From an uncultured Pseudomonadota bacterium (GTDB lineage Bacteria; Pseudomonadota; Alphaproteobacteria; RF32; CAG-239), in assembly GCA_949290295.1 (NCBI GenBank), contig CASERH010000009.1, positions 1 to 62,906 on the forward strand: a stretch of 62,906 bases of DNA, given 5' to 3'. Each line of letters opens with the position of its first letter. The stretch's first letter is position 1. Positions 42,027 to 60,943 of this stretch are shown piece after piece. Below the pieces are notes generated by a model. It made no database searches, was not told the origin of the DNA, and saw nothing but the letters and a program-made list of their open reading frames with translations. The position numbers were made by a program, and so were the translations under genes.

Positions 42027-42089
<63 letters not shown>

Positions 42090-42102
<13 letters not shown>

Positions 42103-42296
42103 TTTTTCAAGCGCCCTTTTTTAGAGGGCGTTTTTTTATTTTGAGAGGCGAAGATATTATCAAAGCAAAATTGATAGTATTCCCAAGAGATTTTGTTTTG
42201 CGTCTGAGGAGGAGAGGGCATTTTGAAGGTATCAAAAAGCTTGATTTCGTCTTCTTCAACATCTTGGTAAGTGTAAGAATTTTTTGCCTTGTCCAT
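42090..42296 (-). CDS. hypothetical small protein (68 aa) at the tRNA-proximal end of the element
   Basis: A strong SD (AGGAGG) lies 8 nt upstream of the ATG at 42296. The reading frame runs through the tRNA-Thr terminator and the last 13 nt of the tRNA, so the C-terminus is uncertain. Confidence 0.4.
42112..42137 (+). terminator. rho-independent terminator after tRNA-Thr
   Basis: CGCCCT-N7-AGGGCG followed by T7. Confidence 0.75.
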
Positions 42297-42324
42297 AAGA
42301 AATCCTCCTAAAAAGAAAATAATT

Positions 42325-42591
42325 TTAATAGCATATGGTTTTGATTTGGTCGCCAAGCCACGCATCTGCGCCCTGATTAATAAAATTGCGAAAAGCTTTT
42401 ATTTCAGGGATGTCTTGAGTGTTGAGCCAGTCACAAAGTTGCCAATCGGGCATATCGTTGATGTAGTCGCAAAAAGCCAAAACCAGATTAATTCTGCGGG
42501 CATAAGGGAGAGCATCGTCCGTAAAGTTCACCTCAAAATAGGTAAACATATCGGCGGCAATATTTTTGAACTTTTGATTTTTAATAAACAT
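42325..42591 (-). CDS. hypothetical protein (88 aa), downstream of the repressor
   Basis: Intact ORF on the repressor strand, preceded by a 14-bp perfect palindrome. No recognisable motif. Confidence 0.5.
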   Translation of the reverse strand: MFIKNQKFKNIAADMFTYFEVNFTDDALPYARRINLVLAFCDYINDMPDWQLCDWLNTQDIPEIKAFRNFINQGADAWLGDQIKTICY

Positions 42592-42594
42592 AAC

Positions 42595-42627
42595 GATTCA
42601 TCCGTATAACAACTATACGGATGAATC
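42595..42627. promoter_or_regulatory. perfect 14-bp inverted repeat (GATTCATCCGTATA-acaac-TATACGGATGAATC)
   Basis: Seen directly. It sits 3 nt upstream of the 88-aa gene start. It overlaps the -10/+1 of a minus-strand TTGACC-18-TAGATT promoter-like site (-35 at 42648-42653). Confidence 0.55.
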
Positions 42628-42662
42628 TACGATAAAAGTATTTGAGGGGTCAAGATAAAAAT

Positions 42663-42677
42663 ATACGCTGTGCGTAT
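42663..42677. promoter_or_regulatory. operator-like palindrome ATACG-N5-CGTAT
   Basis: ATACGCTGTGCGTAT, 5 nt downstream of the repressor stop. It has the same half-sites as the sites in the divergent control region. Confidence 0.45.
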
Positions 42678-42681
42678 CTTT

Positions 42682-43488
42682 TTAAATACGCTTAATCAAA
42701 CCGACAACACGTCCTATGATACGACATTCGTCTATTGAGCGCTCATAGGTGCTGTGCTTTGGGTTGTCGGAAATAATTTTCAGAGTCTGCGGGTCGCTGT
42801 TGGGAATAAGCTCGATTCGCTTAATCGCTACACCCAGTCCGTCCCAAAGGGCAAAGACACCGGCCGGAGAGGGGATTCGCCCCTTGGCAGAGGTATCAAC
42901 AATAACCTTGTCGCCGGTGGCAATAGTTGGGTACATGCTATCGCCCAAGGCCTCAATGATGTAGACATTTTTGGTCTGCACGTTCATCTCACTCAAGTAT
43001 TCGGAAGGAATCCTCCAATTATCTTTAATACGGCGAGTAGAAAGGTTGTCCGCATTATAGTTATAAGAAATGTCGTTTAAGAATCCGGTGGAGATATCCC
43101 AAGTATCTTTAATGTTGTCTTGAGAGATTGTGTTACCAAACTCATCGGTTGTGTTAATGAGGTTTGCGCCCGAGGCGTTGCCGCAACCACCGTAGACGTC
43201 AATTTCAGGAATAGAGTTTTCCGGCTCGCGGTAAGCATAGTCGGATTCGTTTTTACTCAAGAACTGAACATCATCAGACAAGCCGGAGTTAAAATCGAGC
43301 ATACTGTCGAGTCTCACCCTGAGAATCGCAGCAGCTTTAGCGACTCTGTCTAAGGGGATGGCTTTTGTTTTTCCTGAAAAAAGTTCATATATGCGGCTTG
43401 GCGGCCAGCTCAAATCTTTTGCGAATCGGGAGGGATTGCTTCCGAGTTCTGTTAGTCTTTCTCTTAGCCAATTCCATCGTTGTTGCAT
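42682..43488 (-). CDS. phage repressor, XRE-type HTH fused to an S24 (LexA-like) autopeptidase domain
   Basis: N-terminal HTH (SRFAKDLSWPPSRIYELFSG). C-terminal ALGDSMYPTI (Ser nucleophile) and VAIKRI (Lys). 268 aa with an SD (AAGGAG). Confidence 0.85.
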   Translation of the reverse strand: MQQRWNWLRERLTELGSNPSRFAKDLSWPPSRIYELFSGKTKAIPLDRVAKAAAILRVRLDSMLDFNSGLSDDVQFLSKNESDYAYREPENSIPEIDVYGGCGNASGANLINTTDEFGNTISQDNIKDTWDISTGFLNDISYNYNADNLSTRRIKDNWRIPSEYLSEMNVQTKNVYIIEALGDSMYPTIATGDKVIVDTSAKGRIPSPAGVFALWDGLGVAIKRIELIPNSDPQTLKIISDNPKHSTYERSIDECRIIGRVVGLIKRI

Positions 43489-43519
43489 AACTATGGCTCC
43501 TTATAAGTTTTTGTTTTTA

Positions 43520-43608
43520 ATACGAAAAGAGTATCTTTTAAAATGCATTTTGTAAATATACGAACAGTGTAGAAAAAAGCACTTGACTTGCCGATACGCA
43601 AATCGTAT
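43520..43608. promoter_or_regulatory. three tandem operator-like sites (ATAC-N7-GTAT family) in the divergent control region, overlapping a rightward promoter
   Basis: 43594-43608 ATACGCAAATCGTAT is perfect. 43558-43572 ATACGAACAGTGTAG is imperfect. 43520-43534 ATACGAAAAGAGTAT is near-perfect. Centres are 36-38 nt apart. TTGACT at 43583-43588 places the first site in the promoter spacer. Confidence 0.5.
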
Positions 43609-43661
43609 TTAATATATACTATAATAGTTATTAATATTTTATTTACAAGAGGAAAAATGCC

Positions 43662-44111
43662 ATGAATACCGCAAAAACGCATTCAAATTGCCTGAAAAAG
43701 AAAGAAATTTCAGAGCCGTTGTTGTATCGGCGTCGCCTGCAAGATATCAGAATTTGGCGTCATATCAGCGAAAAAGGGTTTGAAAGAGTAGCGGTAAGGC
43801 TATGCCAGGGATATAAATTTATCTGCTGGGGAGGCAGAATGAGAACATCATCTTGGTCAGAGAAAATATCTCGCAGTTACCATCAAGACGTAGACAGTTT
43901 CAATAACGATTCGCTGGATTATCTTATGCACTGCAAGAAAGATTATTTGCATTGGGCAGAGGCTTGCGAGCAAGAAGGGGTTAATCACAGAGCGGTGATG
44001 GAGATAATTTTTTTTGGTCGCAATACGGCAGAAGTAGAGAAGATGTTTCGGCATCGTCATGGCTGGGCATTAAAGAATATGATGCAAGCCTTTGAATTAT
44101 ATAGGAAATAG
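43662..44111 (+). CDS. putative late-gene regulator (Q-like antiterminator or sigma-region-4-like activator)
   Basis: 149 aa, divergent from the repressor and immediately upstream of a promoter-terminator leader. The C-terminal R.V.EIIFFG....EVE......GWA.K....A segment resembles a sigma70 region-4 HTH. Several Cys/His are present. Confidence 0.45.
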   Translation: MNTAKTHSNCLKKKEISEPLLYRRRLQDIRIWRHISEKGFERVAVRLCQGYKFICWGGRMRTSSWSEKISRSYHQDVDSFNNDSLDYLMHCKKDYLHWAEACEQEGVNHRAVMEIIFFGRNTAEVEKMFRHRHGWALKNMMQAFELYRK

Positions 44112-44130
44112 CAAAAGTTATCCACAGGGC

Positions 44131-44157
44131 TTGACAAACGGGGAGAAAAGTTATACA
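44131..44157 (+). promoter_or_regulatory. candidate late promoter (TTGACA ... TATACA, short 15-nt spacer)
   Basis: Consensus -35 at 44131-44136 with the best -10 hexamer at 44152-44157. CGTATAC-tagaatt-CGTATAT repeats follow at 44163-44183. Confidence 0.35.
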
Positions 44158-44207
44158 AAAAACGTATACTAGAATTCGTATATCCTTTTGGGGAAAAGTT
44201 TTAATTT

Positions 44208-44240
44208 ACCGGTGCCGGTGTTGAAGGCGCCGGTTTTTTT
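44208..44240 (+). terminator. strong intrinsic terminator in the leader upstream of the terminase gene
   Basis: ACCGGTGCC-N9-GGCGCCGGT (9-bp GC-rich stem) followed by T7, 48 nt before the TerL ATG. Confidence 0.8.
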
Positions 44241-44287
44241 ATGCCGAATTTATCGGTAGGGGAGATTAAGAAAGAAGGGGAAGAATA

Positions 44288-45796
44288 ATGACAACAAAAG
44301 CCGGAAGAAATAAGGTAATGGGAGGGAGCGTCGAAAAGTCTGACGCGATGATGGTCAACAAGAGAGAAAAAGGCAGCCCAAGGAAAATAAAAAAATCTGC
44401 CTCCAGGGAAGCAAAGACCATCATTGGGGAAGTCATTTCTTCCGGCCGCAAAGCACCAAAAAAGCGAGTTCAAAAATCAGAAGAGTTAAAGATAGAAATA
44501 GCCGAGGTTTTCAAACCTCTGTTGAGTGAGGCCTGGCGCGTAAAGTTTTATTATGGCGGCAGAGGCGGCGGTAAATCTTATGCCTTTGCTGACAGCTTGC
44601 TTCTTTTAGGGCGGCAAAAAAAATTGTTTATAGCCTGCCTGCGGGAGATCCAAGACAGCATCAAAGATTCGGTCTACAAATTGCTGTGTGATAGAATTTC
44701 TGCTTGGGGGTTAACCGATTATAAGATTTATGAAAACAGAATAGAAAACAAAGTAACCGGCACGCGCTTTATCTTCAGAGGCCTAAGAGATCAAGATATA
44801 AACAATATTAAATCTTTGGAAGGTGTGGATATTGCTTGGATAGAAGAAGCGCACACCATCACCAAAAAATCTTGGAATATTCTAAGCCCGACCATTCGCA
44901 AAAACGGCTCAGAGATTTGGATATCCATGAACCGAGAAGAAGAGAATGATCCTTTGTGGGTGTTGGTGGGCAGCAAACCAGATGAGCGAACTTTGGTACG
45001 CAAAGTGAATTATTATGATAACCCGTTTTGTCCGGAGGAGCTTAAACTTCAGGCTGAAAAATGCAAGCGTGAAAGTCCCGAGGACTATGAGCACATCTGG
45101 CTTGGCGAGCCGATAAGGCAAGGAAATTATAAGCTGATATCCTCTCAAAGGGTTAAGGATGCTTTTGTAAAAAAGATGGATTCTTCAACTTCCCCCTTGG
45201 TCATTGGGTTGGATATTGCCCGCTTTGGCGATGACAAGACCTCATTTTGTTTCAGACGCGGGCGTTGGTGTATGAAATTTGAGACTTATAAGAAATTGGA
45301 TAATGTGGAGGTTGCCAATGTCACCACCAATTTCATCCGCCAATATCAGCCCTATCGAATATTTATGGATGTCGGCGGGCAGGGAGCCGGTGTGTATGAT
45401 ATCTTAAAAGACCGAGGTTATGGTGAGATTATCCGCGGTGTCTATTTTGGGGAGAAAGCCCTAAACGACGAGCGTTATTATAACCGCCGTGCCGAGATGT
45501 GGGATGAGATAAGACACTGGCTGGACCAAAAGCCACCGGTGGAGCTGCCGCAAGATGAAGAACTTTTGGATGATTTGACTTCCATCAATAAAAAATATGA
45601 CCAAAGAGGCCGCCTGCGCCTAGAGGAAAAAGATGAGTTGAAAAAACGCTTGGGCCGCTCTCCCGACAAGGGCGATGCCTTGGCTCTGACCTTTGCTGAG
45701 CCGGTATATGACACCGGCCAACCGAGATTATACGGCAATGGGCAGGTGACATTTGAAGATTTATTTAAAGCACAATCAAGGAGTGTTGAATGGTAA
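44288..45796 (+). CDS. terminase large subunit (PBSX/Terminase_3-like) with a basic N-terminal extension
   Basis: Walker A YYGGRGGGKSYAF sits at residues ~88-100 and Walker B-like DIAWIEEA follows. The C-terminal nuclease region has GLDIARFGDD. The first ~65 aa are Lys/Arg-rich. Confidence 0.85.
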   Translation: MTTKAGRNKVMGGSVEKSDAMMVNKREKGSPRKIKKSASREAKTIIGEVISSGRKAPKKRVQKSEELKIEIAEVFKPLLSEAWRVKFYYGGRGGGKSYAFADSLLLLGRQKKLFIACLREIQDSIKDSVYKLLCDRISAWGLTDYKIYENRIENKVTGTRFIFRGLRDQDINNIKSLEGVDIAWIEEAHTITKKSWNILSPTIRKNGSEIWISMNREEENDPLWVLVGSKPDERTLVRKVNYYDNPFCPEELKLQAEKCKRESPEDYEHIWLGEPIRQGNYKLISSQRVKDAFVKKMDSSTSPLVIGLDIARFGDDKTSFCFRRGRWCMKFETYKKLDNVEVANVTTNFIRQYQPYRIFMDVGGQGAGVYDILKDRGYGEIIRGVYFGEKALNDERYYNRRAEMWDEIRHWLDQKPPVELPQDEELLDDLTSINKKYDQRGRLRLEEKDELKKRLGRSPDKGDALALTFAEPVYDTGQPRLYGNGQVTFEDLFKAQSRSVEW

Positions 45797-46047
45797 AAGC
45801 AGTAATGGACCGAGTTTTTATTCGGCTTGATGCAAAAGAAACCGCCACCAGGGGCGGTATTATTTTAACCGATGACCATGATTATGAGCGCACCATCGGC
45901 GTGGTCGAGAGTGTGGGCCCAAGCGTCAAAAGCGTCAAGGTTGGGGACAGAGTTTTGTTTCACGTTTTTGATGAGCTTCCCTCTTATGATCCTGATGTTG
46001 TTGTCGTGCGTGAGAATTCTTTACTAGGAGTATTTGAAAATGACTAA
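45790..46047 (+). CDS. GroES/Cpn10-like co-chaperonin
   Basis: 85 aa. The pattern DRVFIRL...TRGGIIL......IGVVESVGP......VKVGDRVLF matches the GroES fold. Its start overlaps the TerL stop (ATGGTAA). Confidence 0.65.
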   Translation: MVKAVMDRVFIRLDAKETATRGGIILTDDHDYERTIGVVESVGPSVKSVKVGDRVLFHVFDELPSYDPDVVVVRENSLLGVFEND

Positions 46048-47959
46048 ACAGCAAGAAGTTGAGAAATGGCTGAAAAAAATTTCCGTCGCGGAAAAAAAGT
46101 ATAATGATTATTACGAGCTGATAAAAGAGACCAGAGAGTTTTATAAAGACAACAGAGGCATGAGCCGCAGAGACGGACACTATAACATTTTTTGGTCAAC
46201 GGTTGAAACACTCAAGCCCTTTCTCTATTTCAAACAACCAAAACCATATATTGAGCGAGGCAACAAATCTGCCAACAAGGCGGAGAAACTTGCCTGCGAT
46301 ATTTTGACCAAAGCGCTTGAGTGGGATTTGCAGCAATTTGATTTTGACAGCATCATAAAATATGCGCGCAATGACTTTTTAATCAGCGGTTGCGGCATTA
46401 TCTGGGAGAGATATCAGCCGGAGTTCAAACAAATTCCGGCCGCCTTTGTGCCGGATAAAACCATCGAGGTAAAAAGCTCTGAAAAAGTCATTTCCGAATA
46501 TGTTAACCCGGAGCATTTTTTGGCAGATTGTGACCAAGTCGGCATTTGGGAAGATGTGAGTTGGATTGCCCGCAAGATTTTCATGACCAAACAAGAGGCC
46601 GTAGATATTTTCGGAGAGGCCGCTTGTATTAATCTGGTGGAGGCAAATGAGAAAGACTATGAGAACAAAGAAGTTTGCATCTACGAGGTCTGGGACAAAC
46701 CAAGCCGCAAGGTTTATTGGTTGGCCAAAGAAAAAACGGATGACTTTTTGAAAGTCGCAGAAAATCCCTTGCACGTGAGCGGATTCTTTCCATGCCCAAA
46801 ACCGATTTTTGCCACCCTAACCAACGACAGCATCATCCCGGTTCCGGATTATTGCCTGATAAAAGAATTGCTAAGTGAGCTCAACGGGATAAATACCAGA
46901 ATGCGCCTGACCATGCAGGCCTTAAAAGTGAGCGGTGCTTATGATAATTCTTTTCCGGAATTGGCTAGTATTTTGAACAAGGATGTCACTTTGGTTGCCG
47001 CCAAAGATTTCCAAAGATTGAAAGATGCCGGCGGCTTGAAGGGAATTTTGGATTTTGTTCCCATTGAGCAATATATCACGGCCCTAGAGCAGTTATCCGC
47101 TCGCCGCCAAGATGTCATTACTCAGATTTATGAAGTCACCGGAGTTTCAGACATCATGCGCGGCAGTGCCAACAGCAGTGAGACAGCAACCGCCGTCACC
47201 AAAAAGACCAACTTCGGCACCTTGCGCAATCAAGACCGCCAAAATGATATGCAACGCTTTATCAAAGATTTGTTTGCCATCAAGGCAGAAATTATTTGTG
47301 AGCAGTTTTCAGCCCAGACATTGCTTGCCTTTCTTCCGGCAGAAAACCGTGGAACACCGGAGGCTTTGGCCGCGGTTGCTTTGCTCAAAGATGAGAAAAT
47401 GCGAGGCATGTGCCTGGATATTGAAAACGACAATGTTTTCAATGCCGATGAAGAGGCTCAAAAGATTTTAGAAGGCATCAAATCCATCAACGAGTTGGTC
47501 GGAGCGGCGTTGCCAAACGTGAGCCAACAGCCGTTGTTGCTGCCGCTATACAAGAGCATGATAGAAGCTGTTTGTGCGGCTCTGCCGAAAGCACGTCCGT
47601 TTGAGGCAGTGATAGAGAAAGTGTTTAACGATGTTGCCGCCGAGCTCTCCAAGCCAGAACAGCCGCAGCCGAATCAGCAGTTGCAAATAGAGCAAGATAA
47701 ATTGGCCATAGAAAGAGAGAAGAATCAGCTAAAATCGAGAGAGCTTGATATCAAGGCCAAGAGCGAGGAAGCCAAGTTGCGGCTGACCGAGCAAGAGATG
47801 AGATTGCAAAGCGGTCTAAAAGTTCAGCAGCTCTCAGATGAAAGGAAAAAACAGGCAGACAAAAGCGATCCGGTTGTGATTCATGAGAAAGAGCCGTTGC
47901 CGGTACCGTCCAAGAAAGTAGATACCAACATCAGCACCGGCCTTGTCAAAGGATTTTAG
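46040..47959 (+). CDS. portal protein (putative) with a C-terminal coiled-coil/basic tail
   Basis: ~640 aa, directly after TerL, with an SD (AGGAG) 9 nt upstream of the ATG at 46040. Called from size and position. Confidence 0.6.
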   Translation: MTKQQEVEKWLKKISVAEKKYNDYYELIKETREFYKDNRGMSRRDGHYNIFWSTVETLKPFLYFKQPKPYIERGNKSANKAEKLACDILTKALEWDLQQFDFDSIIKYARNDFLISGCGIIWERYQPEFKQIPAAFVPDKTIEVKSSEKVISEYVNPEHFLADCDQVGIWEDVSWIARKIFMTKQEAVDIFGEAACINLVEANEKDYENKEVCIYEVWDKPSRKVYWLAKEKTDDFLKVAENPLHVSGFFPCPKPIFATLTNDSIIPVPDYCLIKELLSELNGINTRMRLTMQALKVSGAYDNSFPELASILNKDVTLVAAKDFQRLKDAGGLKGILDFVPIEQYITALEQLSARRQDVITQIYEVTGVSDIMRGSANSSETATAVTKKTNFGTLRNQDRQNDMQRFIKDLFAIKAEIICEQFSAQTLLAFLPAENRGTPEALAAVALLKDEKMRGMCLDIENDNVFNADEEAQKILEGIKSINELVGAALPNVSQQPLLLPLYKSMIEAVCAALPKARPFEAVIEKVFNDVAAELSKPEQPQPNQQLQIEQDKLAIEREKNQLKSRELDIKAKSEEAKLRLTEQEMRLQSGLKVQQLSDERKKQADKSDPVVIHEKEPLPVPSKKVDTNISTGLVKGF

Positions 47960-47970
47960 GAGCAAAGCCA

Positions 47971-48180
47971 ATGACCATCAAAAAGAGCAAATTAACTTTT
48001 GAGGATATATTAGAAGAGTTGGAAGAGGCCAGAAAGTTGGCGGTTCAGAATGAATCGCCGACAGCGGCCATTTCAGCCTCATTGGGCAAGGCAAAGGTTT
48101 TGGCGCTGATAAATGATAAAATTGCGGCAAAACCGAGCACAGAAGACGCCTACAAACAAATTTTGGTTGAATTTATTTAG
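47971..48180 (+). CDS. hypothetical phage protein (69 aa)
   Basis: SD plus ATG; acidic helical protein with no motif. Confidence 0.5.
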   Translation: MTIKKSKLTFEDILEELEEARKLAVQNESPTAAISASLGKAKVLALINDKIAAKPSTEDAYKQILVEFI

Positions 48181-48196
48181 AGCATATCGGCGTTTT
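48179..48196 (+). repeat. 18-nt direct repeat, left copy (AGAGCATATCGGCGTTTT), flanking the moron
   Basis: Identical to 49269-49286. The left copy is a decayed version of the terminator hairpin found at the right copy. Confidence 0.8.
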
Positions 48197-48233
48197 ATAA
48201 AAAAACACCGACTAAAATAGCAAAGGATAAAAA

Positions 48234-48836
48234 ATGGGAATATATACTAATTCATTCGGAGAGACACCCGAAGAACAAGAAAAACGTCGCCAGCATTTAT
48301 ATCAAGTATACGATGCATCAGTTAAGAAAAACGAGCAACAGACAGCTTATAAAGATACCCCTCAAGATCAAATGACACGGGAAACAAATAATAATGAAAT
48401 AGGGAGTAAAAGTATACAACATAACAATAACTCAGCATTAAAAGAAAACACTACAAACAACATCCATAATTTTGCCTCTCAAATAAAAAACGCAGCAGAG
48501 GCTATGAGTAATGAATATTTTTTGATGCATAAGCATAATTATAAAAACTTAGATGATTATTATCATTGTAAGGCTAATTATAATGCGACGAAACAAGGAG
48601 TTTTTGGAAAAGCAACTTCTCATATTTTAGGCACGGGAAAGGAAGTTGTTGACTTAGTACGAAATACAACATATAAAAGAATGCCAATACAAAATGCCAT
48701 TAAAGACATGAACCATGATTTAAATATTAATCAAATAGGTAGAAATAGAGCTGATAAAAATATTGGTATTTCTGCCCAAGATGCGTGTGCGGATTTTAGA
48801 TGGAAAAATCCTAAATTACCAGAGGAATATTGGTGA
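48234..48836 (+). CDS. serum amyloid A (SAA)-like domain protein with an Asn/Gln-rich N-terminal region
   Basis: The C-terminal ~105 aa align without large gaps to vertebrate SAA from memory. MSNEYFLMHKHNYKNLDDYYHCKANYNATKQGVFG aligns with [42 protein letters not shown]...DFRWKNPKLPEEYW aligns with [23 protein letters not shown]. Confidence 0.7.
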   Translation: MGIYTNSFGETPEEQEKRRQHLYQVYDASVKKNEQQTAYKDTPQDQMTRETNNNEIGSKSIQHNNNSALKENTTNNIHNFASQIKNAAEAMSNEYFLMHKHNYKNLDDYYHCKANYNATKQGVFGKATSHILGTGKEVVDLVRNTTYKRMPIQNAIKDMNHDLNINQIGRNRADKNIGISAQDACADFRWKNPKLPEEYW

Positions 48837-48838
48837 AT

Positions 48839-49243
48839 ATGATATCAATAAGAAAAATTCTGAACATCATAGTTGTTATATTTCTGATAACTATCATGGT
48901 AACTCCGTTGTTGGGAGTTCTGTATATCTTTTTTAATGATAAAGGAGCCTGTTTGGAAACAGGAGGTGTTTGGGATGAAGAAGAAGGCCGTTGCCGACAA
49001 GATTGTTTGGTTTGGAACAAAAAATTCGGATGCATTGAATTAACAGCAGAACAAGTCAAAAAAATGGAAAGTTGTCGTTCAATAAATAAACATTGCCTTT
49101 CAATTGATGACTTTTTTGTTATTTGTCAAAACAACAACAAAGCTTGGAATTTAGATAACAAAAGTTGTCGTTTTGAGTTTAAAATATCTGAGTGTGGAAA
49201 GCTTTCAGGACATTGGCAATACCCTTCTTTATGTAAAGAGTAA
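48839..49243 (+). CDS. membrane-anchored Cys-rich protein
   Basis: An N-terminal TM helix (ILNIIVVIFLITIMVTPLLGVLYIFF) is followed by a ~100-aa domain with 10 Cys. Possible starts are ATG 48839, GTG 48833 or TTG 48830. It overlaps or abuts the SAA-like gene stop. Confidence 0.6.
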   Translation: MISIRKILNIIVVIFLITIMVTPLLGVLYIFFNDKGACLETGGVWDEEEGRCRQDCLVWNKKFGCIELTAEQVKKMESCRSINKHCLSIDDFFVICQNNNKAWNLDNKSCRFEFKISECGKLSGHWQYPSLCKE

Positions 49244-49268
49244 TAACATAATAAAGCATCAAACAAAG

Positions 49269-49307
49269 AGAGCATATCGGCGTTTTTTATAAAACGCCGA
49301 TATTTTT
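49269..49307 (+). terminator. right copy of the 18-nt repeat, forming a 13-bp-stem rho-independent terminator
   Basis: ATATCGGCGTTTT-ttat-AAAACGCCGATAT followed by a T-run. Confidence 0.8.
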
Positions 49308-49321
49308 ATGCGGAGAATCAG

Positions 49322-49546
49322 ATGTATTTCACCAAAGAGTGGACGGACAGCCTGCTGCTGCCCGACGGTTCGGTTGTTTCATCAAACGCCGGGCTTGACA
49401 GATATTTGCGGGACAACGATTTGTCCCTCTCACAAGATTATTCCGAGGCCTGGCTGCAACAGCGGCGTCGGCATAACGAAAAAGTTCAGAGAGAAGAGCT
49501 TTTCTCTGACTTCATTCATAATTATAAAAGGAGTATTTGGAAATGA
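49322..49546 (+). CDS. hypothetical phage protein (74 aa)
   Basis: SD (GGAG) plus ATG. Its stop overlaps the next start (ATGA). Confidence 0.5.
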   Translation: MYFTKEWTDSLLLPDGSVVSSNAGLDRYLRDNDLSLSQDYSEAWLQQRRRHNEKVQREELFSDFIHNYKRSIWK

Positions 49547-50208
49547 CCAGTGAACTAAGAAAAGAATTAGAACGTCAATATGACCGGGCAGTTGCTGAAG
49601 CCGCCAAAAAAGAGCAAGAGCAGCAAATTTGCCCACCGGAAGAAGATGAATTTTTGCTTCCGCCGCGGTCATATAAAAAAGAATATGCGGAATGCTTCAA
49701 GTCTCTTCCGCCCGAGATGCGCAGGTACCTGCATGAACGGGAGAGCGAGACCGAGAAAGGATTTTCGCGCTTAAATAATGAGCTCAACAATCGCCGCTGG
49801 TTGGATGATGCCTTCAGTGCTCGTTCTGCCAGATTAGGACGTTTGGGAATTTGCAAAGCCAAAGATTGGGTAGAAACCATGGCCAAAATAGATGACGACC
49901 TGGAAAAAGACCCGTTTGGCACCTTGCAAACTCTGGCCAAAGCTTATGGCGTTCATTTGGGAGCCCCCATCCAACCAACCGCAGCAGTAGATGTTGCGCC
50001 ATTGTTGGAACGGCTTGAGGAGCTAAACAGCAAATTCAGCCGTTTTGTAGACGAGTTCAGAGCCAAAACCATAGAGGAAGAGCAGATTGCCGAGAGCAAA
50101 AAAGCCAAAGAAGCTTCGTTTTCTCCCAAAGGCAAAAACTCCAACCGTGATTTATCCAAACTCACCACGCGTGAGGTTTTGGAGCTAAAGTTGGCAGACT
50201 ACGAATAA
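49543..50208 (+). CDS. scaffolding-like protein
   Basis: ~221 aa, highly charged and helical, immediately upstream of the capsid-like gene. An SD (AAAGGAG) lies 9 nt upstream of the ATG at 49543. Confidence 0.5.
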   Translation: MTSELRKELERQYDRAVAEAAKKEQEQQICPPEEDEFLLPPRSYKKEYAECFKSLPPEMRRYLHERESETEKGFSRLNNELNNRRWLDDAFSARSARLGRLGICKAKDWVETMAKIDDDLEKDPFGTLQTLAKAYGVHLGAPIQPTAAVDVAPLLERLEELNSKFSRFVDEFRAKTIEEEQIAESKKAKEASFSPKGKNSNRDLSKLTTREVLELKLADYE

Positions 50209-50254
50209 GTCTTTTGATTTTTTAACCCTAAATTTTTAAGTAAAAGGAAAATAA

Positions 50255-51226
50255 ATGTCTAATCCTGATTTTGATGATGTCTTAACATCGACGATTGCCA
50301 GCCGCTCAGGTCAGTTGGCTGACAATATGACAAACAACAACGCTCTTTTGCGTCGCCTAAAGAGCAAAGGAAAAATCCGTCCGATTTCAGGCGGTTCCAA
50401 AATTGTGGAAGAGCTGGAGTACGGCGAAGGAGATCTGACCTGGTATTCAGGTTATGATACCATTGAATACACGCCCAAACAGTTGTTTACGGCGGCAGAA
50501 TATAGCCTCAAACTCTGTGCGGTTCCGGTAGCCATTTCCGGTGAGGATCTTTTGAAGAACTCCGGCAAAGAACGTATTGTTGATCTTTTTGAGAAACGTG
50601 TAGAAAACGCCATCAAGACCATCGGCAACAAAATGTCTGCCGCCATCTACAGCGATGGTACCGGTTCTTCCGGTAAGGAGATTGGCGGTTTGGCCTTGTT
50701 GGTAGCCGATACCCCGACCACCGGTACTGTTGGCGGCATTAACCGTGCCACAGCAGGCAATGAGTTTTGGAGAAACAAATCCACCCAAATGACCGAGGCC
50801 TTGAGCACCGACAACATCCACGCCGCTATGGATAAGATGTATATGTCTCTCTGCCGCGGAACCGACAAACCCGATTTGATTATCTGCAACAACGACATTT
50901 ACGGCATCTATGAAGCAACATTGTTGCCGCAGCAGCGTTATTCAGACAACAAATTGGCTGACGCCGGTTTCACCAGCATCAAGTTCAAAGGAGCAGATTT
51001 GATTTGTGACGGCGGCCAAAACGGTCATTGCCCGAATGATAAGATTTACTTCCTTAATACTGACTATTTGTATCTGCGTCCGCACAAAGACAGAGATATG
51101 AAAGTCATCGGCGGTGAGCGTATGGCAGTTAACCAAGATGCTTTGTATAAGATTATCGGTTGGGCAGGCAACATGACCATGTCCAATGCCTCTTTGCAAG
51201 GTGTTCTGATTAACAAGACAGCCTAG
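50255..51226 (+). CDS. major capsid protein (putative)
   Basis: 323 aa, following the scaffold-like gene and followed by two terminators. It has good codon usage. Called from position and size, with no confirmed motif. Confidence 0.6.
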   Translation: MSNPDFDDVLTSTIASRSGQLADNMTNNNALLRRLKSKGKIRPISGGSKIVEELEYGEGDLTWYSGYDTIEYTPKQLFTAAEYSLKLCAVPVAISGEDLLKNSGKERIVDLFEKRVENAIKTIGNKMSAAIYSDGTGSSGKEIGGLALLVADTPTTGTVGGINRATAGNEFWRNKSTQMTEALSTDNIHAAMDKMYMSLCRGTDKPDLIICNNDIYGIYEATLLPQQRYSDNKLADAGFTSIKFKGADLICDGGQNGHCPNDKIYFLNTDYLYLRPHKDRDMKVIGGERMAVNQDALYKIIGWAGNMTMSNASLQGVLINKTA

Positions 51227-51240
51227 GACTCATAAAAATT

Positions 51241-51276
51241 CGTGCCGTTGAGGAAACTTAGCGGCACGAGCTTTTT
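51241..51276 (+). terminator. rho-independent terminator after the capsid gene
   Basis: CGTGCCG-N14-CGGCACG then AGCTTTTT. Confidence 0.7.
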
Positions 51277-51354
51277 CTTGTAAAATATATTTTTCAAAAA
51301 ATCATTATACATACATACCTCCATAGAAGTTGATGACAAAATAATTGAACATAA

Positions 51355-51389
51355 GCCCGGTAGCTAAATAAGAGCGCCGGGCATTTTTT
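51355..51389 (+). terminator. second hairpin plus T-run ~80 nt downstream
   Basis: GCCCGG-N16-CCGGGC then ATTTTTT. Confidence 0.55.
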
Positions 51390-51413
51390 ATTTATAACAG
51401 AAAGGAAAGAATT

Positions 51414-51971
51414 ATGGACATGGATTTTCCCGCATTTGAGTATTTGGCTCGCAGCACTAAACCGGAAGAAGGGGTTTGCGCCCGCTTTTATGACCGCAGC
51501 ATCAAAACCGATAAAATAGATGCACACGGGTTTCCGATTTTTGAAAATGTGTGTTTCTGCGAGATACGCATAAGAGATAACAACTCCGAGATTTTTGACC
51601 AGCCGGCCACGGAAGAAAAGATAAAACGTTTTCCGGTTGAATATGCCAGATACCAACTGGCCAAAAAACAGGCACAAACCGGCACGCCGCTGGAGCAGTT
51701 TGCCTTTTTGAGCCTGGCAGAGGTAGATTCCTTAAAAAGCCGCGGCATTTTTACGGTAGAGGCCTTGAGCGAGATGGATATGGCTAGGGCTGAAAACTTA
51801 GGCATCAGCCGCGAGAAAGAATTGGCGGATAAATTCATGCAACAGGCCTCCGGCAACAAAGGGCTGGTGGCTTGGCAAGAGACTGAAGATAGGTACAAAA
51901 CCAAGATAAAGAAACTGGAAGCAGAGGTAAGAAATTTGCGCGCAGCACTTAAAAAAGGAGAACAGGAATGA
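51414..51971 (+). CDS. hypothetical virion-associated protein (185 aa)
   Basis: Intact ORF in the structural block with a C-terminal coiled coil. ATGA overlap with the next gene. Confidence 0.5.
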   Translation: MDMDFPAFEYLARSTKPEEGVCARFYDRSIKTDKIDAHGFPIFENVCFCEIRIRDNNSEIFDQPATEEKIKRFPVEYARYQLAKKQAQTGTPLEQFAFLSLAEVDSLKSRGIFTVEALSEMDMARAENLGISREKELADKFMQQASGNKGLVAWQETEDRYKTKIKKLEAEVRNLRAALKKGEQE

Positions 51972-52687
51972 AGAATATCTTACAAATTTGCCAAGAGGCT
52001 GCCAGTTTGGTCGCCACTCAAAAGCCACAAGACTTGTTCAATGAAGACAGCCAACAAGAGGCCATATTTTTAAGCGTTGCCAAAGACACGTTAGACAGCC
52101 TTTTAAGATATGGAGATTGGCAGGAACTGACCAGAGAAGGAGAAATCAGAACCATAGAGGGAAAGACAAATTATCTGTTGGCGGATTATTGTCCTGATTT
52201 TTATAGCCTGATAAATAACACGGTTTTCATCAAAGACACTGCAGAAAAAGTTGTCGGCGCCATCACACCGGAGCAGTGGATGAGAGAAAAGTATTTCAAT
52301 GTTCCCTCTCTTGATTTGAAGTTTAAAATACAAAACGGAATGTTCAAGTTTTTAACACCGCCGCCGGGAAATTTGCGCATTGTTTTTCAGTATCGCTCGG
52401 CCGGCATTGTTTATGAAGGCGGTGGTGATTTTTGCGGAGAAGAAAAATCTGTTTTAAGCAAAAATACGGATATCCCGGTTTTTGATGAATATTTGGTCAA
52501 AAAAGGCATTGTTTGGCGTTGGTATCGCCGCAACGGCATGCCCTATGAAGAAGAATACAATGAATATGAGCGAGAAGTAAAAAATCGTTTTGCCTCCGGG
52601 CTGGCAACCAAAGATATCAATCTGGCTGCCGGAATTTATGATGGCAGATTAGAAGGAGTGGTAATCAATGCAGCAAAGAGCAACTAA
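51968..52687 (+). CDS. hypothetical virion protein (239 aa; head-tail adaptor-sized)
   Basis: Translationally coupled on both sides. No motif recognised. Confidence 0.5.
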   Translation: MKNILQICQEAASLVATQKPQDLFNEDSQQEAIFLSVAKDTLDSLLRYGDWQELTREGEIRTIEGKTNYLLADYCPDFYSLINNTVFIKDTAEKVVGAITPEQWMREKYFNVPSLDLKFKIQNGMFKFLTPPPGNLRIVFQYRSAGIVYEGGGDFCGEEKSVLSKNTDIPVFDEYLVKKGIVWRWYRRNGMPYEEEYNEYEREVKNRFASGLATKDINLAAGIYDGRLEGVVINAAKSN

Positions 52688-54218
52688 CCGAGGCAACACC
52701 TCCACCAACTATACTTTGCCGGCGCCGATCGGCGGCCTAAACGTGAGAGACAGCCTTGACACGATGGATGAAAAAGATGCCATTGTGATGGATAATTATC
52801 TTCCGACAGAAACTAAGGTTGTGCTGCGTAAGGGGTATACCTCTTATGCCGTGCTGGGGGCCAAAATACACACGCTGATAGAGTATAAGAAGCCATCATA
52901 TGAGCGTTTTTTTGCCTGCGGCGGTGGCAAGGTGTGGAATATCAGCAGTAAGGAAAACGTAGAAGAAATAGCCTCAGGCTTTAACAATAATGATTGGCAA
53001 TATTGCCAGTTTAAGGACCGTTTGATTTTTGTTAACGGCTATGATAAACCGCAGACTTTTTATGTAAGTGATGGCGAGGAACATTGGGAAGAAGCCACAT
53101 TTGAGGGTAGTAATTTGTCATCACAAAAACTTATCAATGTAACGGTGAGCAAGCAACGCTTATTTTTTGTGGAGAAAGGTACTCTTTCTGCCTGGTATAG
53201 CCAAGGCGCAGGAGAAGTGCAGGGAACGCTGGTAAAATTTGATTTATCAGCAATTTTCAAAAAAGGTGGAGAGCTTTTAGCCGTAGCTTGTTGGACACAA
53301 GATGCCGGCCAAGGCATGGATGACTTAACCGTGTTTATCACCAGCGAGGGAGAGGTGGCGGTTTACACCGGCAATGATCCTGGTGATGCCTCAGATTGGA
53401 GTTTAAGAGGAGTTTATCAGATGAGCAGGCCGATAGGCTATCGTTGTACCATGCAATATCAAGGAGATATTGTGATTATTTCGGAAGACGGTTATATCCC
53501 GATGTCAAAAGCCTTGTCATTGGATAAAGCCAATGCCTCGCAAGTTTCGTTTTCAGACAAGATAAGAGGACTTGTGCTGGAGCGCACCAAGAACGGCCGC
53601 AATAAATTTGGTTGGCAGTCGGTTATTTATGGGCGTGGCGGATATGCCGTTTTTAATGTTCCGGTGTCAGAACAGTTTGAGCAACACGTTGTCAATGTTA
53701 ACACGGGAGCTTGGTGCAGATTTACGAACATCAGAGCTTTTTGTTGGGGATTATTTCAAAATCGACTATACTTTGGTTCGGATGAAGGTGTTTTTCTGTT
53801 TGATGAAGGCTATGCAGACAATGGTACCCATATTTGCGGTGTGGTTGAGCAGGCTTACAGCAATTTGGGCAATCCGAATTTAAAAAGGATACAACTAATA
53901 AATCCACGGACCAAGTCATCAGTAAAATATGCTTTGGTGGTGTATACCAACATGGATTTTGACAGCCAAGATAAAGCCTATGCAGAAAATATAGGGACAG
54001 TAGGAATAACCAAGTGGGATAAGGTTAAGTGGAGCTCGCTTGCCAAGCCGATAGGAACCAAATGGGCCACCTTGAAAGGTAAAATCCGCTCGCAGTGGAT
54101 AGGTAATTCGGCCACCGGTTTTAAGGCCAGTGTAGTTTTTAAGACCAAGACCAGAGGCAATTTGATAGAATGGTACGATACGGGGTTTCGCTATGAACAA
54201 GGAAGCAGCATCTTGTAA
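52668..54218 (+). CDS. hypothetical virion protein (516 aa; tail-hub/nozzle-sized)
   Basis: A large ORF at the position where podoviruses encode tail tube/hub proteins. No motif recognised. Confidence 0.5.
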   Translation: MQQRATNRGNTSTNYTLPAPIGGLNVRDSLDTMDEKDAIVMDNYLPTETKVVLRKGYTSYAVLGAKIHTLIEYKKPSYERFFACGGGKVWNISSKENVEEIASGFNNNDWQYCQFKDRLIFVNGYDKPQTFYVSDGEEHWEEATFEGSNLSSQKLINVTVSKQRLFFVEKGTLSAWYSQGAGEVQGTLVKFDLSAIFKKGGELLAVACWTQDAGQGMDDLTVFITSEGEVAVYTGNDPGDASDWSLRGVYQMSRPIGYRCTMQYQGDIVIISEDGYIPMSKALSLDKANASQVSFSDKIRGLVLERTKNGRNKFGWQSVIYGRGGYAVFNVPVSEQFEQHVVNVNTGAWCRFTNIRAFCWGLFQNRLYFGSDEGVFLFDEGYADNGTHICGVVEQAYSNLGNPNLKRIQLINPRTKSSVKYALVVYTNMDFDSQDKAYAENIGTVGITKWDKVKWSSLAKPIGTKWATLKGKIRSQWIGNSATGFKASVVFKTKTRGNLIEWYDTGFRYEQGSSIL

Positions 54219-54624
54219 TGTTATTTTTGATAAGAATGACGTCATCACCAACTGGGTGTGTGATAATTTAAAAAGTGGCAATAAATGGTTAGGAGAGCAC
54301 TTAACCATAGGCTTTACACTGGGAGATAGATTAATCGGCGGGCTGATTTATCATGATTGCCGTATGGGACACGATGTCTGGTGGACGATTTATACGAATG
54401 ATAAACATTGGTGCACCAGAAAGATACTTCGTTTTATTTTTTCGGTAGCCTTTGATTATTTAGGCTGTCGGCGTATAAGCATTTTAACCAACGTAAATAA
54501 CAAGGAGTGCTTAAAATTGGTTTCAAAACTAGGTTTTAGGCAAGAAGGTCTGCTCAAAGAATATGATGATGATGGCAGCGATGTTGCCGTCATGGCTTTA
54601 CATAAACAATTTTCAAAATTTTAA
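54193..54624 (+). CDS. GNAT-family N-acetyltransferase-like protein
   Basis: 143 aa. The central segment ...ILRFIFSVAFDYLGCRRISILTNVNNKECLKLVSKLGFRQEG resembles the GNAT acetyl-CoA-binding core. Confidence 0.55.
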   Translation: MNKEAASCNVIFDKNDVITNWVCDNLKSGNKWLGEHLTIGFTLGDRLIGGLIYHDCRMGHDVWWTIYTNDKHWCTRKILRFIFSVAFDYLGCRRISILTNVNNKECLKLVSKLGFRQEGLLKEYDDDGSDVAVMALHKQFSKF

Positions 54625-54634
54625 GGAGAAAAGA

Positions 54635-55507
54635 ATGTCAAAAAGTGTGGGAAAATTACTCGGTGTTGGTAATGCCAAAACCGGTTATTACGGATCAGAA
54701 CAAGATGTACTTAATTATTTGGATAATTACGATACATCGCAAACAGACAGTGCCTATAACAACATGGCAACGCTTGGCAATCAGATGACAACCGAGTTGT
54801 CTAATCGCCCTGGCTATGTCTATTCGGTGAATGGTTCAGATGATGCGGCCAGAAGAGCAGAAACCGCAACCTACCAAAGTGCAGTGAGCCAAATTACACC
54901 TCAGTTTGACAGCCGCCGCCGACAGCTGGAAACTCAGTTGCAAAATCAGGGCTTGTCCGTTGGCAGTGAGGCCTACCAAAGCGCCATGAATAATCTGGAG
55001 CAACAGCAAAATGACGCTTATACGCAGGCAGCTTATCAGGCTATTCAGCAGGGACAAAATGCTTATACCAATAGCCTGAATAATCAGATTGCGGCCGGAA
55101 ATTTCCAGAATTCGGCACAGATTTTGCCTGTTAATGAGATATTGAGTTTGCTTTCAAACAGCAAGAGCGGCTACGATGTTGCAATGGATAAATATAACGT
55201 TGCCAACAAGGCAGATTTAAGAAGCTCTGCCGCCAGTGAGGCCAATGCCGATGCCAGAAACTCGGCTGGTTGGAATATTATCAATACCGGACTAGGGGCT
55301 CTGTTTTCAGATGAGGACTTGAAAGAAAATATCATAGAAGTCGGACGTTTGTATAACGGCTTGAAAGTATATTTATTCACTTATCGCGGAGATACGGTAC
55401 CACATATCGGCCTGCTGGCTCAGGAGGTTGTGCAAGTGCGTCCCGAGGCAGTAAGTGTTGAGAAAAACGGCTATATGAAAGTAAATTATGCTCTTGCTTG
55501 CCGTTAA
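54635..55507 (+). CDS. tail/fiber-associated protein with a C-terminal S74 intramolecular-chaperone autoprocessing domain
   Basis: C-terminal SDEDLKENI...VYLFTYRGDTVPHIGLLAQEVVQVRPEAV...GYMKVNY matches the Peptidase_S74 pattern. The middle is Gln/Asn-rich and helical. SD (AAGGAG) upstream of the ATG at 54635. Confidence 0.65.
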   Translation: MSKSVGKLLGVGNAKTGYYGSEQDVLNYLDNYDTSQTDSAYNNMATLGNQMTTELSNRPGYVYSVNGSDDAARRAETATYQSAVSQITPQFDSRRRQLETQLQNQGLSVGSEAYQSAMNNLEQQQNDAYTQAAYQAIQQGQNAYTNSLNNQIAAGNFQNSAQILPVNEILSLLSNSKSGYDVAMDKYNVANKADLRSSAASEANADARNSAGWNIINTGLGALFSDEDLKENIIEVGRLYNGLKVYLFTYRGDTVPHIGLLAQEVVQVRPEAVSVEKNGYMKVNYALACR

Positions 55508-55582
55508 TTTTTGATTTGACAGCAACCTAAAGGAGATTATACTCAAATCATATTTGCAAGAGTTTCAAAATAGGAGCAGGTC

Positions 55583-55963
55583 ATGACATATATCTTTGCA
55601 GAGCTATTGGGCAGCTTGGCCTTAAGTGGTATTATCCGTGCGTTGATATTGTATTTATATAAAAAATATGATGGAAAATCACATTGGGTAATAGCTAACC
55701 TAAGTACGGCAATTTTGCGTACTTTGTTTGTGGTGCCGAGATTGCTGAGCAGCCCATATGTTGTGCTGGATATATCAGTTATGCTTGTAATTTATTTTTT
55801 GGAACAGCTGGTATGGTTTTTATATGACTATATCCAACAGCGCCGAGGCAATAAAGCAGCCGGCTGGGGCCTGATATTTGGCATTATCATCGGCGGTGTC
55901 TTGTGGTTGTTTGTTTTAAGACTGCTTACTTTTTATATAAGCAGCCTGTTCATGTCTATCTAG
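55583..55963 (+). CDS. small multi-pass membrane protein (holin-like or immunity)
   Basis: 126 aa with 3-4 predicted TM helices, upstream of the spanin pair. Confidence 0.5.
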   Translation: MTYIFAELLGSLALSGIIRALILYLYKKYDGKSHWVIANLSTAILRTLFVVPRLLSSPYVVLDISVMLVIYFLEQLVWFLYDYIQQRRGNKAAGWGLIFGIIIGGVLWLFVLRLLTFYISSLFMSI

Positions 55964-56153
55964 ATTGTACATAAGCTAAATAATAGCTGTCGAGCTGAGG
56001 TTCGGCGGCTTTTTTATAAGAGGAAAAAATGCTCAAAAAGTATAGATTAGCTATATTTTCCGTAGGGCTGATAATATTATCCATAGTTTCTCTCCTAAAG
56101 CCCGAGGCGGCAGAAAATGTCGCCCGGGCATTTTTATTATTATGGGGGATGGG

Positions 56154-56351
56154 ATGATAAAAAAAATATTATTGGTCACGATGCTATGCGTAGTCAGTTA
56201 TGCTTTGGGACGCTCACAGGCCAAAGAGGAAATCATTACCAAGCAGGTGGAGGTAATCAAATATGTTGAGAAAGAAAAAGCCAAGATACATTCTCGTCCT
56301 AACGCTGACAGGTCTGCTTTGCTTGCTCTCATGTACTCCGACAAAATGTAA
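56154..56351 (+). CDS. i-spanin (Rz-like)
   Basis: An N-terminal TM (ILLVTMLCVVSYAL) is followed by a charged helical domain. It overlaps the lipoprotein gene in another frame. ATG at 56154 (alternative at 56142). Confidence 0.6.
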   Translation: MIKKILLVTMLCVVSYALGRSQAKEEIITKQVEVIKYVEKEKAKIHSRPNADRSALLALMYSDKM

Positions 56352-56493: not shown

Positions 56494-56516
56494 TTTTTTA
56501 ATATAAGGAGAAAAAA

Positions 56517-57299: not shown

Positions 57300-57302
57300 A
57301 AC

Positions 57303-57653: not shown

Positions 57654-57658
57654 ATAAC

Positions 57659-60942: not shown

Positions 60943-60943
60943 T

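Follow-up and report, generated by a model that had tools for sequence, protein, structure and literature searches.

A candidate SAA-fold toxin and its putative immunity gene as exchangeable cargo in the head module of a prophage element from gut Alphaproteobacteria

[quoted passage not shown] Members of the clade are recognised by an sNxxGR motif and a short fifth helix, while the ancestral Lipocone active site combines a histidine in helix 2, a glutamate in helix 3 and an aspartate in helix 4 (PMC12419801). Animal SAA itself was acquired from bacteria before the split of cnidarians from other animals (PMC12419801). A domain of the prok-SAA kind is encoded at positions 48179-49308 of a 62,906-nucleotide stretch of DNA from an uncultured alphaproteobacterium (contig CASERH010000009.1, assembly GCA_949290295.1), the whole of which is referred to here as the window. 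With a probability of about 0.7, this segment is a two-gene polymorphic toxin-immunity cassette that a podovirus-like prophage element of an uncultured human-gut alphaproteobacterium carries in its packaging/head module as exchangeable cargo.

Prok-SAA domains are found in polymorphic toxins as their toxin tips, and the delivery and immunity types listed for them are "T6SS, MuF, TM+Imm-SAA" (T6SS, type VI secretion system; TM, transmembrane; PMC12419801). The immunity proteins of Lipocone toxins are all TM proteins or lipoproteins with a predicted periplasmic action, and one cysteine-stabilised type is paired with Min-Wnt as well as prok-SAA domains. Imm-SAA consists of a TM anchor and a small domain in which one helix and four strands are held by four absolutely conserved cysteines; it occurs downstream of prok-SAA in 75 loci, and fusions of MuF to prok-SAA occur in 19 (PMC12419801). 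Phage-encoded intracellular Min-Wnt domains have in addition been proposed as superinfection limiters (PMC12419801). The experimentally studied Lipocone families are PTDSS1/2 and TelC, both of which act on phosphate-linked lipid head groups. TelC, as summarised in PMC12419801, is soluble, is active only outside the cytoplasm and cleaves lipid II at the undecaprenyl-diphosphate bond.

Two further groups of toxins provide points of comparison. MuF polymorphic toxins are encoded beside the portal gene of temperate phages, followed by a small immunity gene, and are proposed to be capsid cargo (PMC5576092); a characterised member from a gut Bacteroides prophage, Bxa, affects host epithelial cells as well as bacteria (PMC11699363). 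In Escherichia coli O157:H7, Rhs/PAAR toxins end in a C-terminal PF00277 domain (PMC7216683).

The window locus shares with the described prok-SAA/TM+Imm-SAA systems a Pfam SAA match, the His/Glu/Asp residues, the NxxGR motif, a soluble C-terminal domain behind a variable N-terminus and a TM-anchored, cysteine-rich gene directly downstream. It differs in its N-terminal module, which is not among the listed T6SS/PAAR-Rhs, MuF, PG-binding and metallopeptidase-vWD types, and in its setting, as cassettes in a phage element with a P22-like portal are not described in PMC12419801. The prok-SAA source data of that study include close relatives of the window domain, for example HIU52938.1. Like the E. 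coli O157:H7 proteins, the window protein carries an SAA domain as the tip of a polymorphic toxin in a Gram-negative organism; those toxins are delivered by the T6SS through large N-terminal regions, whereas the window protein has 200 residues and a short N-module specific to its phage group. As the toxin domain and the kind of system had already been described, the surprise at the centre of the finding dissolves.

An SAA-domain gene and its cysteine-rich partner

The insert carries two genes on the + strand, ORF1 (48234-48836, 200 aa) and ORF2 (48839-49243, 134 aa). ORF1 is divided into an N-terminal module (aa 1-40, 48234..48353), an Asn/Gln-rich disordered linker (aa 41-78, 48354..48467) and a prok-SAA (Lipocone) domain (aa 79-200 and the stop codon, 48468..48836). 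An earlier note on this DNA had proposed, from the sequence alone, that the C-terminal part resembles SAA, and had named a profile search and a structural superposition as checks. Both were run, and both bear the proposal out. ORF1 matches Pfam SAA (PF00277) over residues 80-188 at E=1.6e-12 and 48.1 bits, above the gathering cut-off of 30.8, and the alignment spans model positions 3-93 of 102, or about 90% of the model. This is the sole Pfam match of ORF1. A phmmer search of the PDB returned mouse SAA3 and other SAA chains at 8e-5 to 4e-3 and nothing but SAA chains.

An AlphaFold2 (AF2) model built from 16 homologues places an N-terminal helix at residues 12-40 (predicted local distance difference test score, pLDDT, 86-88), a disordered stretch at 42-71 (pLDDT <50) and a four-helix bundle with a tail over 80-191, in which residues 111-190 reach a pLDDT of 85-95. 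The helices of the SAA domain span residues 80-100, 107-119, 123-146 and 152-175, followed by short helices at 181-184 and 187-191. The short fifth helix and the low hydrophobicity that characterise prok-SAA domains are both present, and direct reading of the sequence revealed no hydrophobic segment. In Foldseek searches of the PDB, the seven best matches of the model are all mouse SAA3 or human SAA1 (entries 6pxz, 6py0, 4q5g, 4ip8 and 4ip9), with E-values of 6.5e-4 to 5.2e-3, TMt of 0.79-0.82, rmsd of 2.6-3.1, a probability of 1.0 and 23-25% identity over 120 columns; the next match after SAA has E=0.56. The C-terminal part of ORF1 is thus an SAA-fold domain. The N-terminal half, described earlier as Asn/Gln-rich, has that composition only at residues ~41-78, where both length and sequence differ among homologues, and residues ~10-40 form a conserved helix (..N.[FW].E...EQ.[KR]RR..L...YD..).

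Among the 16 homologues, H111, C112, K113, E137, D162 and N166 are invariant, and G169, R170 (>=90%) and C185 are nearly so. In the phmmer alignment, H111, E137, D162 and N166-R170 line up with the vertebrate SAA residues H, E, D and NEWGR. On this conservation and alignment, the predicted catalytic codons are those of His111 (48564-48566), Glu137 (48642-48644) and Asp162 (48717-48719), all on the + strand. Together with the NQIGR motif at residues 166-170, these residues make up the signature of active SAW-clade Lipocones (PMC12419801), although the residue before the Asn of the NxxGR motif is Ile or Val rather than the small residue of sNxxGR. The conservation of Cys112 and Cys185 within the SAA domain suggests a disulfide and hence an extracytoplasmic site of action. 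No signal peptide was seen on direct reading of ORF1, as the N-terminus (MGIYTNSFGETPEEQEKRRQ...) is hydrophilic, in agreement with the earlier note.

The comparison with vertebrate SAA1 and SAA3 (4ip8, 4q5g, 6pxz) shows both likeness and distance. The four-helix bundle and the wrapping C-terminal tail are common to both (template modelling score, TM-score, 0.80-0.82), as are the positions of H, E, D and NxxGR and the C-terminal FR...LPE.Y residues. Vertebrate SAA is a secreted protein of ~104-112 aa with a signal peptide and lacks the two conserved cysteines, whereas the window protein has 200 aa, no signal peptide, an extra N-terminal helix and linker, an immunity-type partner and a bacterial/phage context. 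Identity to vertebrate SAA is 24-25%, as against 40-56% to a family of bacterial proteins. A profile of the ORF1 family matched 781 representative clusters at E<=1e-3; among the best 145 of these that were scanned, 134 match PF00277, 12 also match PG_binding_1 and 5 match Phage_Mu_F. In public assemblies, 57 indexed blocks contain the identical 200-aa protein, and in all eight of the places listed among the matches it is intact and accompanied, in the same order, by the 134-aa partner.

ORF2 begins 2 nt past the stop codon of ORF1 and is translationally coupled to it, and forms part of the unit although it was missing from the earlier description. This putative immunity gene encodes an N-terminal TM helix (~aa 7-32), preceded by R5 and K6, and a domain of ~100 aa; ten cysteines are conserved across 12 homologues. 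From the positive-inside rule and the cysteine content, the cysteine-rich domain is predicted to face the periplasm. A homologue of ORF2 lies directly 3' of the SAA gene in 9/9 genome loci and in 22/25 metagenome loci, the other three, at least one of them at a contig edge, having no match. At a second insertion site of a related element (L024:587-1242), all that remains of the SAA gene is its last 51 codons, without His111 and Glu137, and the partner (826-1242) is intact, for which reason the latter is regarded as a putative orphan immunity gene. The situation is similar at L081:6001-6772, where an intact partner accompanies a split SAA reading frame. In one database protein (P0016), the N-terminal part of the SAA protein is fused in frame to a partner-like cysteine-rich tail, which is probably a deletion product. 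Searches with ORF2 found no family in Pfam, NCBIfam, PHROGs or PADLOC, and only noise in the PDB.

Cargo sites and a shared N-terminal module

The cassette is compositionally foreign and bounded by repeats, as the earlier note had stated in describing an AT-rich insert between the portal-side genes and the scaffold gene. In 300-nt windows, GC content is 0.30-0.36 across ~48150-49349 and 0.40-0.50 on either flank, and the cassette proper (48181-49268) has a GC content of 0.322. The codon check proposed in that note gave GC at third codon positions (GC3) of 0.234 for ORF1 and 0.274 for ORF2, as compared with 0.42-0.55 for TerL, GroES, portal, p69, p74, scaffold and the major capsid protein (MCP). 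The window contains exactly two copies of the 18-mer AGAGCATATCGGCGTTTT, which start at 48179 and 49269, with no copies expected from 100 shuffles; the direct repeat is exact over 18 nt and extends to 26 nt at 92% identity. Its right copy (48179 being the left; 49269..49308, + strand) forms an intact intrinsic terminator, with a perfect 13-bp hairpin at 49274-49303 and a T-run, which is scored as a terminator in the scan and folds at -18.2 kcal/mol. The left copy (48179..48204, + strand) appears as a decayed terminator hairpin with a weak fold of -8.8 kcal/mol. Upstream of the cassette on the + strand, a promoter scan found no sigma-70-like site, and across the region the scan gave five such sites with 5.3 expected by chance, that is, no enrichment. 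The weak upstream hairpin and the absence of a promoter-like site before the cassette make late co-transcription with the head genes plausible.

Comparison with close relatives, which are phage-like elements with portal proteins 75-85% identical, revealed two insertion sites. Site A has as its left flank p69, a conserved small gene that follows the portal gene (47971..48180, +), and as its right flank p74, a small gene before the scaffold gene that is conserved across the phage group (49322..49546, +). The SAA pair occupies site A in the window and in the related loci L018 and L019. Site B, between p149 and TerL, is empty in the window, where a single terminator (44214-44234) lies within 44112..44287 (+); the SAA pair occupies it in L012, L013, L019 and L024. 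In L012, site A is empty, with p74 following p69 after 25 nt and no hairpin between them. In L013 and L024, site A instead holds 2.3-3.1 kb of other genes, which encode N-module proteins with unrelated C-termini. Relatives with ~50% portal identity lack the SAA cassette, and in these p74 follows the portal gene directly. The idea that ORF1 is a common structural component of the phage group, which the earlier note had named as an outcome that would count against cargo, was rejected on these grounds, and its description as cargo holds. Three other more distant relatives (L035:7872-8549, L042:7888-8562 and L043:7895-8557) carry at the portal-p74 site a gene of ~225 aa that matches Stealth_CR2 weakly, at E=1.3e-7 and short of the gathering score. 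As Stealth proteins resemble capsule phosphotransferases, the site is a general cargo hot-spot and not reserved for toxins.

Each single-cassette insertion checked is surrounded by duplicated repeats that contain a terminator, 26-68 nt in length: 26 nt at site A of the window and, at site B, 62 nt in L012, 68 nt in L013, 28 nt in L019 and 39 nt in L024. At site A of L013, the duplication takes in the first codons of p74. Such duplication would be expected if a circular cassette had undergone a single crossover with a short terminator sequence shared by the two. In keeping with the characteristics of a moron, the cassette is missing from related phages, differs in composition and has its own terminator. 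The proposal that it had been inserted at a terminator fits site B, where the window retains a single one, but not site A as far as the comparison shows: insertion into a pre-existing terminator was rejected there, as the empty site of L012 has none, and the site A terminators seem to have arrived with the cargo.

The N-terminal module of ORF1 (~35 aa; M.D.RY.NMWGE..EEQ.KRR.WL..VYD) is common to the SAA toxins of the related elements and to proteins with unrelated C-termini, namely P0017/P0018, L013:7853-8290, L013:9537-10268, L024:5163-5600 and L019:9945-10748. It heads at least three C-terminal types: SAA, a 145-aa type ("..NPDDDCDDLI..") and a Gly-rich type of 243-277 aa, to which it is joined in P0017 and P0018 from the protein database. 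After the N-module, the short database fragments P0059 and P0061-P0063 continue differently again and may represent further types. Both non-SAA types are trailed by their own small multi-TM gene or genes, and arrays are found in L013, L019 and L024. More N-module genes follow in tandem downstream of the SAA pair in L018 and L019, and in L019 a displaced C-terminal remnant of a 145-aa-type toxin lies after the SAA immunity gene.

Every copy in the head module of this phage group bears the N-module. Where the flanking sequence yielded no homologue of the head genes of this element (L020-23 and most metagenome loci), the SAA toxins start differently, for example with "MGG..." or "..DY.NMTLREELEARF..". 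Among these non-N-module loci, the direct search for phage families covered L060 and L077, and the PHROG search of their neighbours gave no phage context; therefore, not every member of the clade is phage-borne. The standalone SAA toxins at L020-L023 (8001-8866), L014, L015, L016 and L061-L072 start with MGGI/L/T..N.. and have neither N-module nor signal peptide, at loci in which no head genes of this element were found. In one common human-gut lineage (L020-23), the pair is located directly 3' of valS. A contig binned as Lachnospiraceae (L017:448-2013) encodes a 412-aa protein in which the SAA domain comes at the C-terminus, behind a long N-terminus of unrelated sequence, followed by a 108-aa partner gene and then a large 593-aa gene; either another, independent phage context or an error of binning may account for it.

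These arrangements resemble the MuF toxins in their location in the packaging module near the portal gene, in a conserved N-terminus with a variable toxin C-terminus, in the small downstream immunity gene and in their occurrence in gut bacteria on an element with a repressor (S24 in the window). Sites A and B both lie in the portal/terminase neighbourhood in which the MuF toxins of temperate phages are encoded, but no integrase was found in the element. In contrast to MuF toxins, the window protein has no Phage_Mu_F match, its N-module is a single helix of ~35 aa, p69 intervenes between its gene and the portal gene, and it is predicted to act at the periplasm or membrane, whereas most MuF toxins are predicted to be cytoplasmic. 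Homologues of p69 lie directly 5' of the cargo site in L012, L013, L018, L019 and L024. This gene occurs only in relatives with N-module toxins and is absent where p74 directly follows the portal gene, a pattern that is confounded by relatedness; no Pfam or PHROG family was found for it, and it could be an adaptor for the toxins.

Proposed mechanism and competing explanations

The presence of a TM/cysteine-rich gene downstream, of other toxins with the same N-module and of an orphan immunity gene argues for inter-bacterial toxin-immunity biology. As is usual for polymorphic toxins, a shared N-terminus heads alternative C-termini, and a downstream partner, arrays and orphan remnants are present as judged from position. 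ORF1 would then be a three-part toxin, composed of the ~35-aa N-terminal helix, the disordered Asn/Gln-rich linker and the C-terminal prok-SAA domain. By homology with the Lipocone superfamily, the latter would cut phosphate-linked lipid head groups. On the periplasmic face of the target inner membrane, it would probably attack lipid II, another undecaprenyl-phosphate carrier or lipids of the outer leaflet, such that envelope synthesis of the target cell would be blocked. ORF2 would be the cognate immunity protein, a single-pass protein whose disulfide-rich periplasmic domain neutralises the toxin there and thereby protects cells that carry the element.

A mechanistic template is provided by TelC-TipC of Streptococcus intermedius, in the accounts summarised the only Lipocone toxin-immunity pair studied experimentally, in which a membrane/periplasmic immunity protein neutralises TelC. 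In the same accounts, TelC belongs to another Lipocone family with another immunity fold, and is exported by a type VII system via an LXG domain in a Gram-positive organism. Since ORF1 has no signal peptide or known trafficking domain, and since the N-module is confined to the head-module toxins of this group, the N-module is proposed as the trafficking element. Its role would be to attach the toxin to the portal or capsid of the virion, as in MuF toxins, or else to mediate release and uptake once the phage has caused lysis, as in colicins.

Several observations weigh against this interpretation. A recognised secretion or trafficking domain, as expected of a polymorphic toxin, was not found in ORF1: Pfam gave no MuF, PAAR/Rhs or LXG domain, and NCBIfam and PHROGs were likewise empty. 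PADLOC, NCBIfam and PHROGs returned nothing meaningful for ORF1 or ORF2, and the PADLOC defence models matched none of ORF1, ORF2, P0017 and P0011. The N-module comprises only ~35 aa, and no homologue with an assigned function emerged from profile, IMG/VR and metagenome scans. A profile search with the module alone gave just short fragments of the same family, the IMG/VR scan gave two contigs, both already among the loci compared, and the first metagenome scan gave no match; nor did IMG/VR yield a match to the SAA alignment. The AF2 model of ORF2, made from a three-sequence alignment, has a pLDDT of 61 and is confident only for the TM helix. Its ten conserved cysteines compare with four in Imm-SAA, although the TM helix and the downstream position agree, and homology to Imm-SAA is inferred from architecture only. 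The promoter scan upstream of the cassette was negative, as described above, with the qualification that the host promoter type may differ. In addition, the lipid-head-group chemistry is extrapolated from TelC and PTDSS, both of other Lipocone families; no Lipocone of the SAA clade has been characterised biochemically, and there is no experiment on any prok-SAA toxin.

An alternative site of action is the cytoplasm of the lysogen itself, where the SAA domain might attack, for example, lipid II before flipping and cause superinfection exclusion or abortive infection, with gene 2 as a membrane regulator or sensor. A toxin without a signal peptide that is carried as prophage cargo would suit such a role, and phage Min-Wnt domains have been proposed to act against superinfection (PMC12419801). 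However, the ten-cysteine domain of the partner, placed after an N-in TM helix, points to the periplasm, and the conserved cysteine pair of the toxin suggests an oxidising compartment. Arrays with a shared N-module and orphan immunity genes are, moreover, typical of inter-cellular polymorphic toxins, and no PADLOC match was obtained, which leaves an intracellular conflict effector an unlikely explanation. More improbable still is an accessory function in lysis, in which late cleavage of cell-wall lipid carriers would resemble the action of single-gene lysis proteins that block peptidoglycan synthesis and gene 2 would be a timing inhibitor. The weak upstream hairpin makes late co-transcription with the head genes likely, and the predicted substrate class is lipid II-like. 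Yet the element already has holin-like, lysozyme and spanin-like genes, and close relatives lack the cassette or carry unrelated toxins in its place, for which reasons such a role is very doubtful; homologous pairs also occur at loci without phage genes found nearby.

The earlier note had favoured host mimicry by a eukaryote-like effector. On such a reading, a copy of animal SAA carried by the phage would be set free in the gut and would act via SAA receptors, through retinol or high-density lipoprotein (HDL) binding, or by induction of Th17 cells. The SAA fold is real, the hosts are alphaproteobacteria of the human gut, and the prophage toxin Bxa sets a precedent for an effect on epithelial cells (PMC11699363). 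Nevertheless, the low identity to vertebrate SAA and the much higher identity to the bacterial family run counter to this proposal: the protein falls within a large bacterial family (781 clusters), some of whose best matches have PG-binding or phage MuF N-termini, and transfer has been inferred from bacteria to Metazoa (PMC12419801). An effector directed at the animal host would need no immunity gene, whereas here a TM/cysteine-rich partner is present, and is kept as an orphan where the toxin is lost. With non-SAA toxins on the same N-module and no secretion signal, host mimicry is an improbable account of the locus, though a secondary effect on the animal host is conceivable. Finally, the cassette might be non-functional, as a decaying hitch-hiker or an annotation artefact whose SAA match is a short-motif coincidence, in line with the very low GC3 and the lack of a detectable promoter. 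This possibility is negligible, given a profile match over ~90% of the Pfam model, a fold match over 120 columns, two intact frames and key residues that are invariant at 40-56% identity. The intact pair in 8/8 listed places of the 57 blocks argues in the same direction, and the coincidence that the earlier note had allowed for is contradicted by profile score, fold and residue conservation alike.

The carrier element and implications

The phage-like element that carries the toxin-immunity cassette measures only ~18.8 kb (window 42100-60950). A tRNA-Thr gene (42027-42102) borders it on one side and the gene of a host-like M23 peptidase (60979-62427, minus strand) on the other; a tRNA-Asp gene is found at 62615, and the 15 kb to its left hold the housekeeping genes ffh, rimM, trmD, hisS, asd and MscS. 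The element encodes an S24/LexA-like repressor, p149, TerL, GroES, portal, scaffold, an SU10-type MCP, tail and fibre proteins, a holin-like protein and a lysozyme; neither an integrase nor replication genes were found in it. More distant relatives in IMG/VR measure 33-35 kb, and the element of the window may be defective or domesticated. The same genes for an MscS channel and a MurD-like ligase adjoin it in different species (window 37505-41261; L018:1-1672; L012:3-2724; L009; L010), with host proteins 69-93% identical and portal proteins 78-85% identical; in L012, these host genes are inverted and ~3 kb off. This shared context suggests vertical inheritance or a common integration site. The genomes matched by the 200-aa protein are metagenome-assembled genomes (MAGs) labelled uncultured Alphaproteobacteria, several of them from human-gut samples.

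Other genes of the element were recorded alongside. TerL and the portal gene flank, and both overlap, a GroES/Cpn10 homologue (45790-46047, Pfam E=2.9e-12) that is kept throughout the phage group, down to ~50% portal identity. Among the tail genes, between the gene of a 516-aa protein and the first fibre gene, is an acetyltransferase-like gene (54193-54624) that matches PHROG 4470 ("moron/auxiliary", E=1.6e-23). A spanin-like overlapping pair at 56142-56493, encoding 69 aa with a TM helix and 76 aa with a lipoprotein-like start, is situated between tail-fibre genes, apart from the genes for the holin-like protein (59625-59879) and the lysozyme (59876-60346). The pair has homologues downstream of the SAA cassette in L014.

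A more specific version of the toxin-immunity reading can be outlined, though it is a speculative and unlikely one. The N-module would be a capsid- or portal-targeting signal that loads interchangeable toxins (SAA and at least two other types) into the particles of a podovirus-like element that is replication-defective and fixed in the chromosome. The element is called defective and fixed because of its size of ~18.8 kb, the absence of integrase and replication genes, and the recurrence of the MscS/MurD-like genes as its neighbours in several species. Such particles would constitute a domesticated device, similar to a gene transfer agent (GTA) or a tailocin, that injects periplasm-acting toxins into rival gut alphaproteobacteria, with p69 as a possible adaptor.

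Two aspects of the locus are new with respect to the described systems. The non-MuF N-terminal module defines a small phage-linked set of polymorphic toxins in gut Alphaproteobacteria, whose hosts are known here only as uncultured MAGs, and the head module contains two terminator-bounded cargo hot-spots at which cassettes are exchanged between duplicated terminators. An unlikely story, that of a phage copy of a mammalian acute-phase protein, is thereby replaced by a testable toxin-immunity reading. The compact pair, with a domain of 122 aa and a partner of 134 aa, is convenient for testing the lipid-head-group enzymology of the SAA fold and its blocking by an immunity protein, and the outcome bears on the disputed molecular function of animal SAA.

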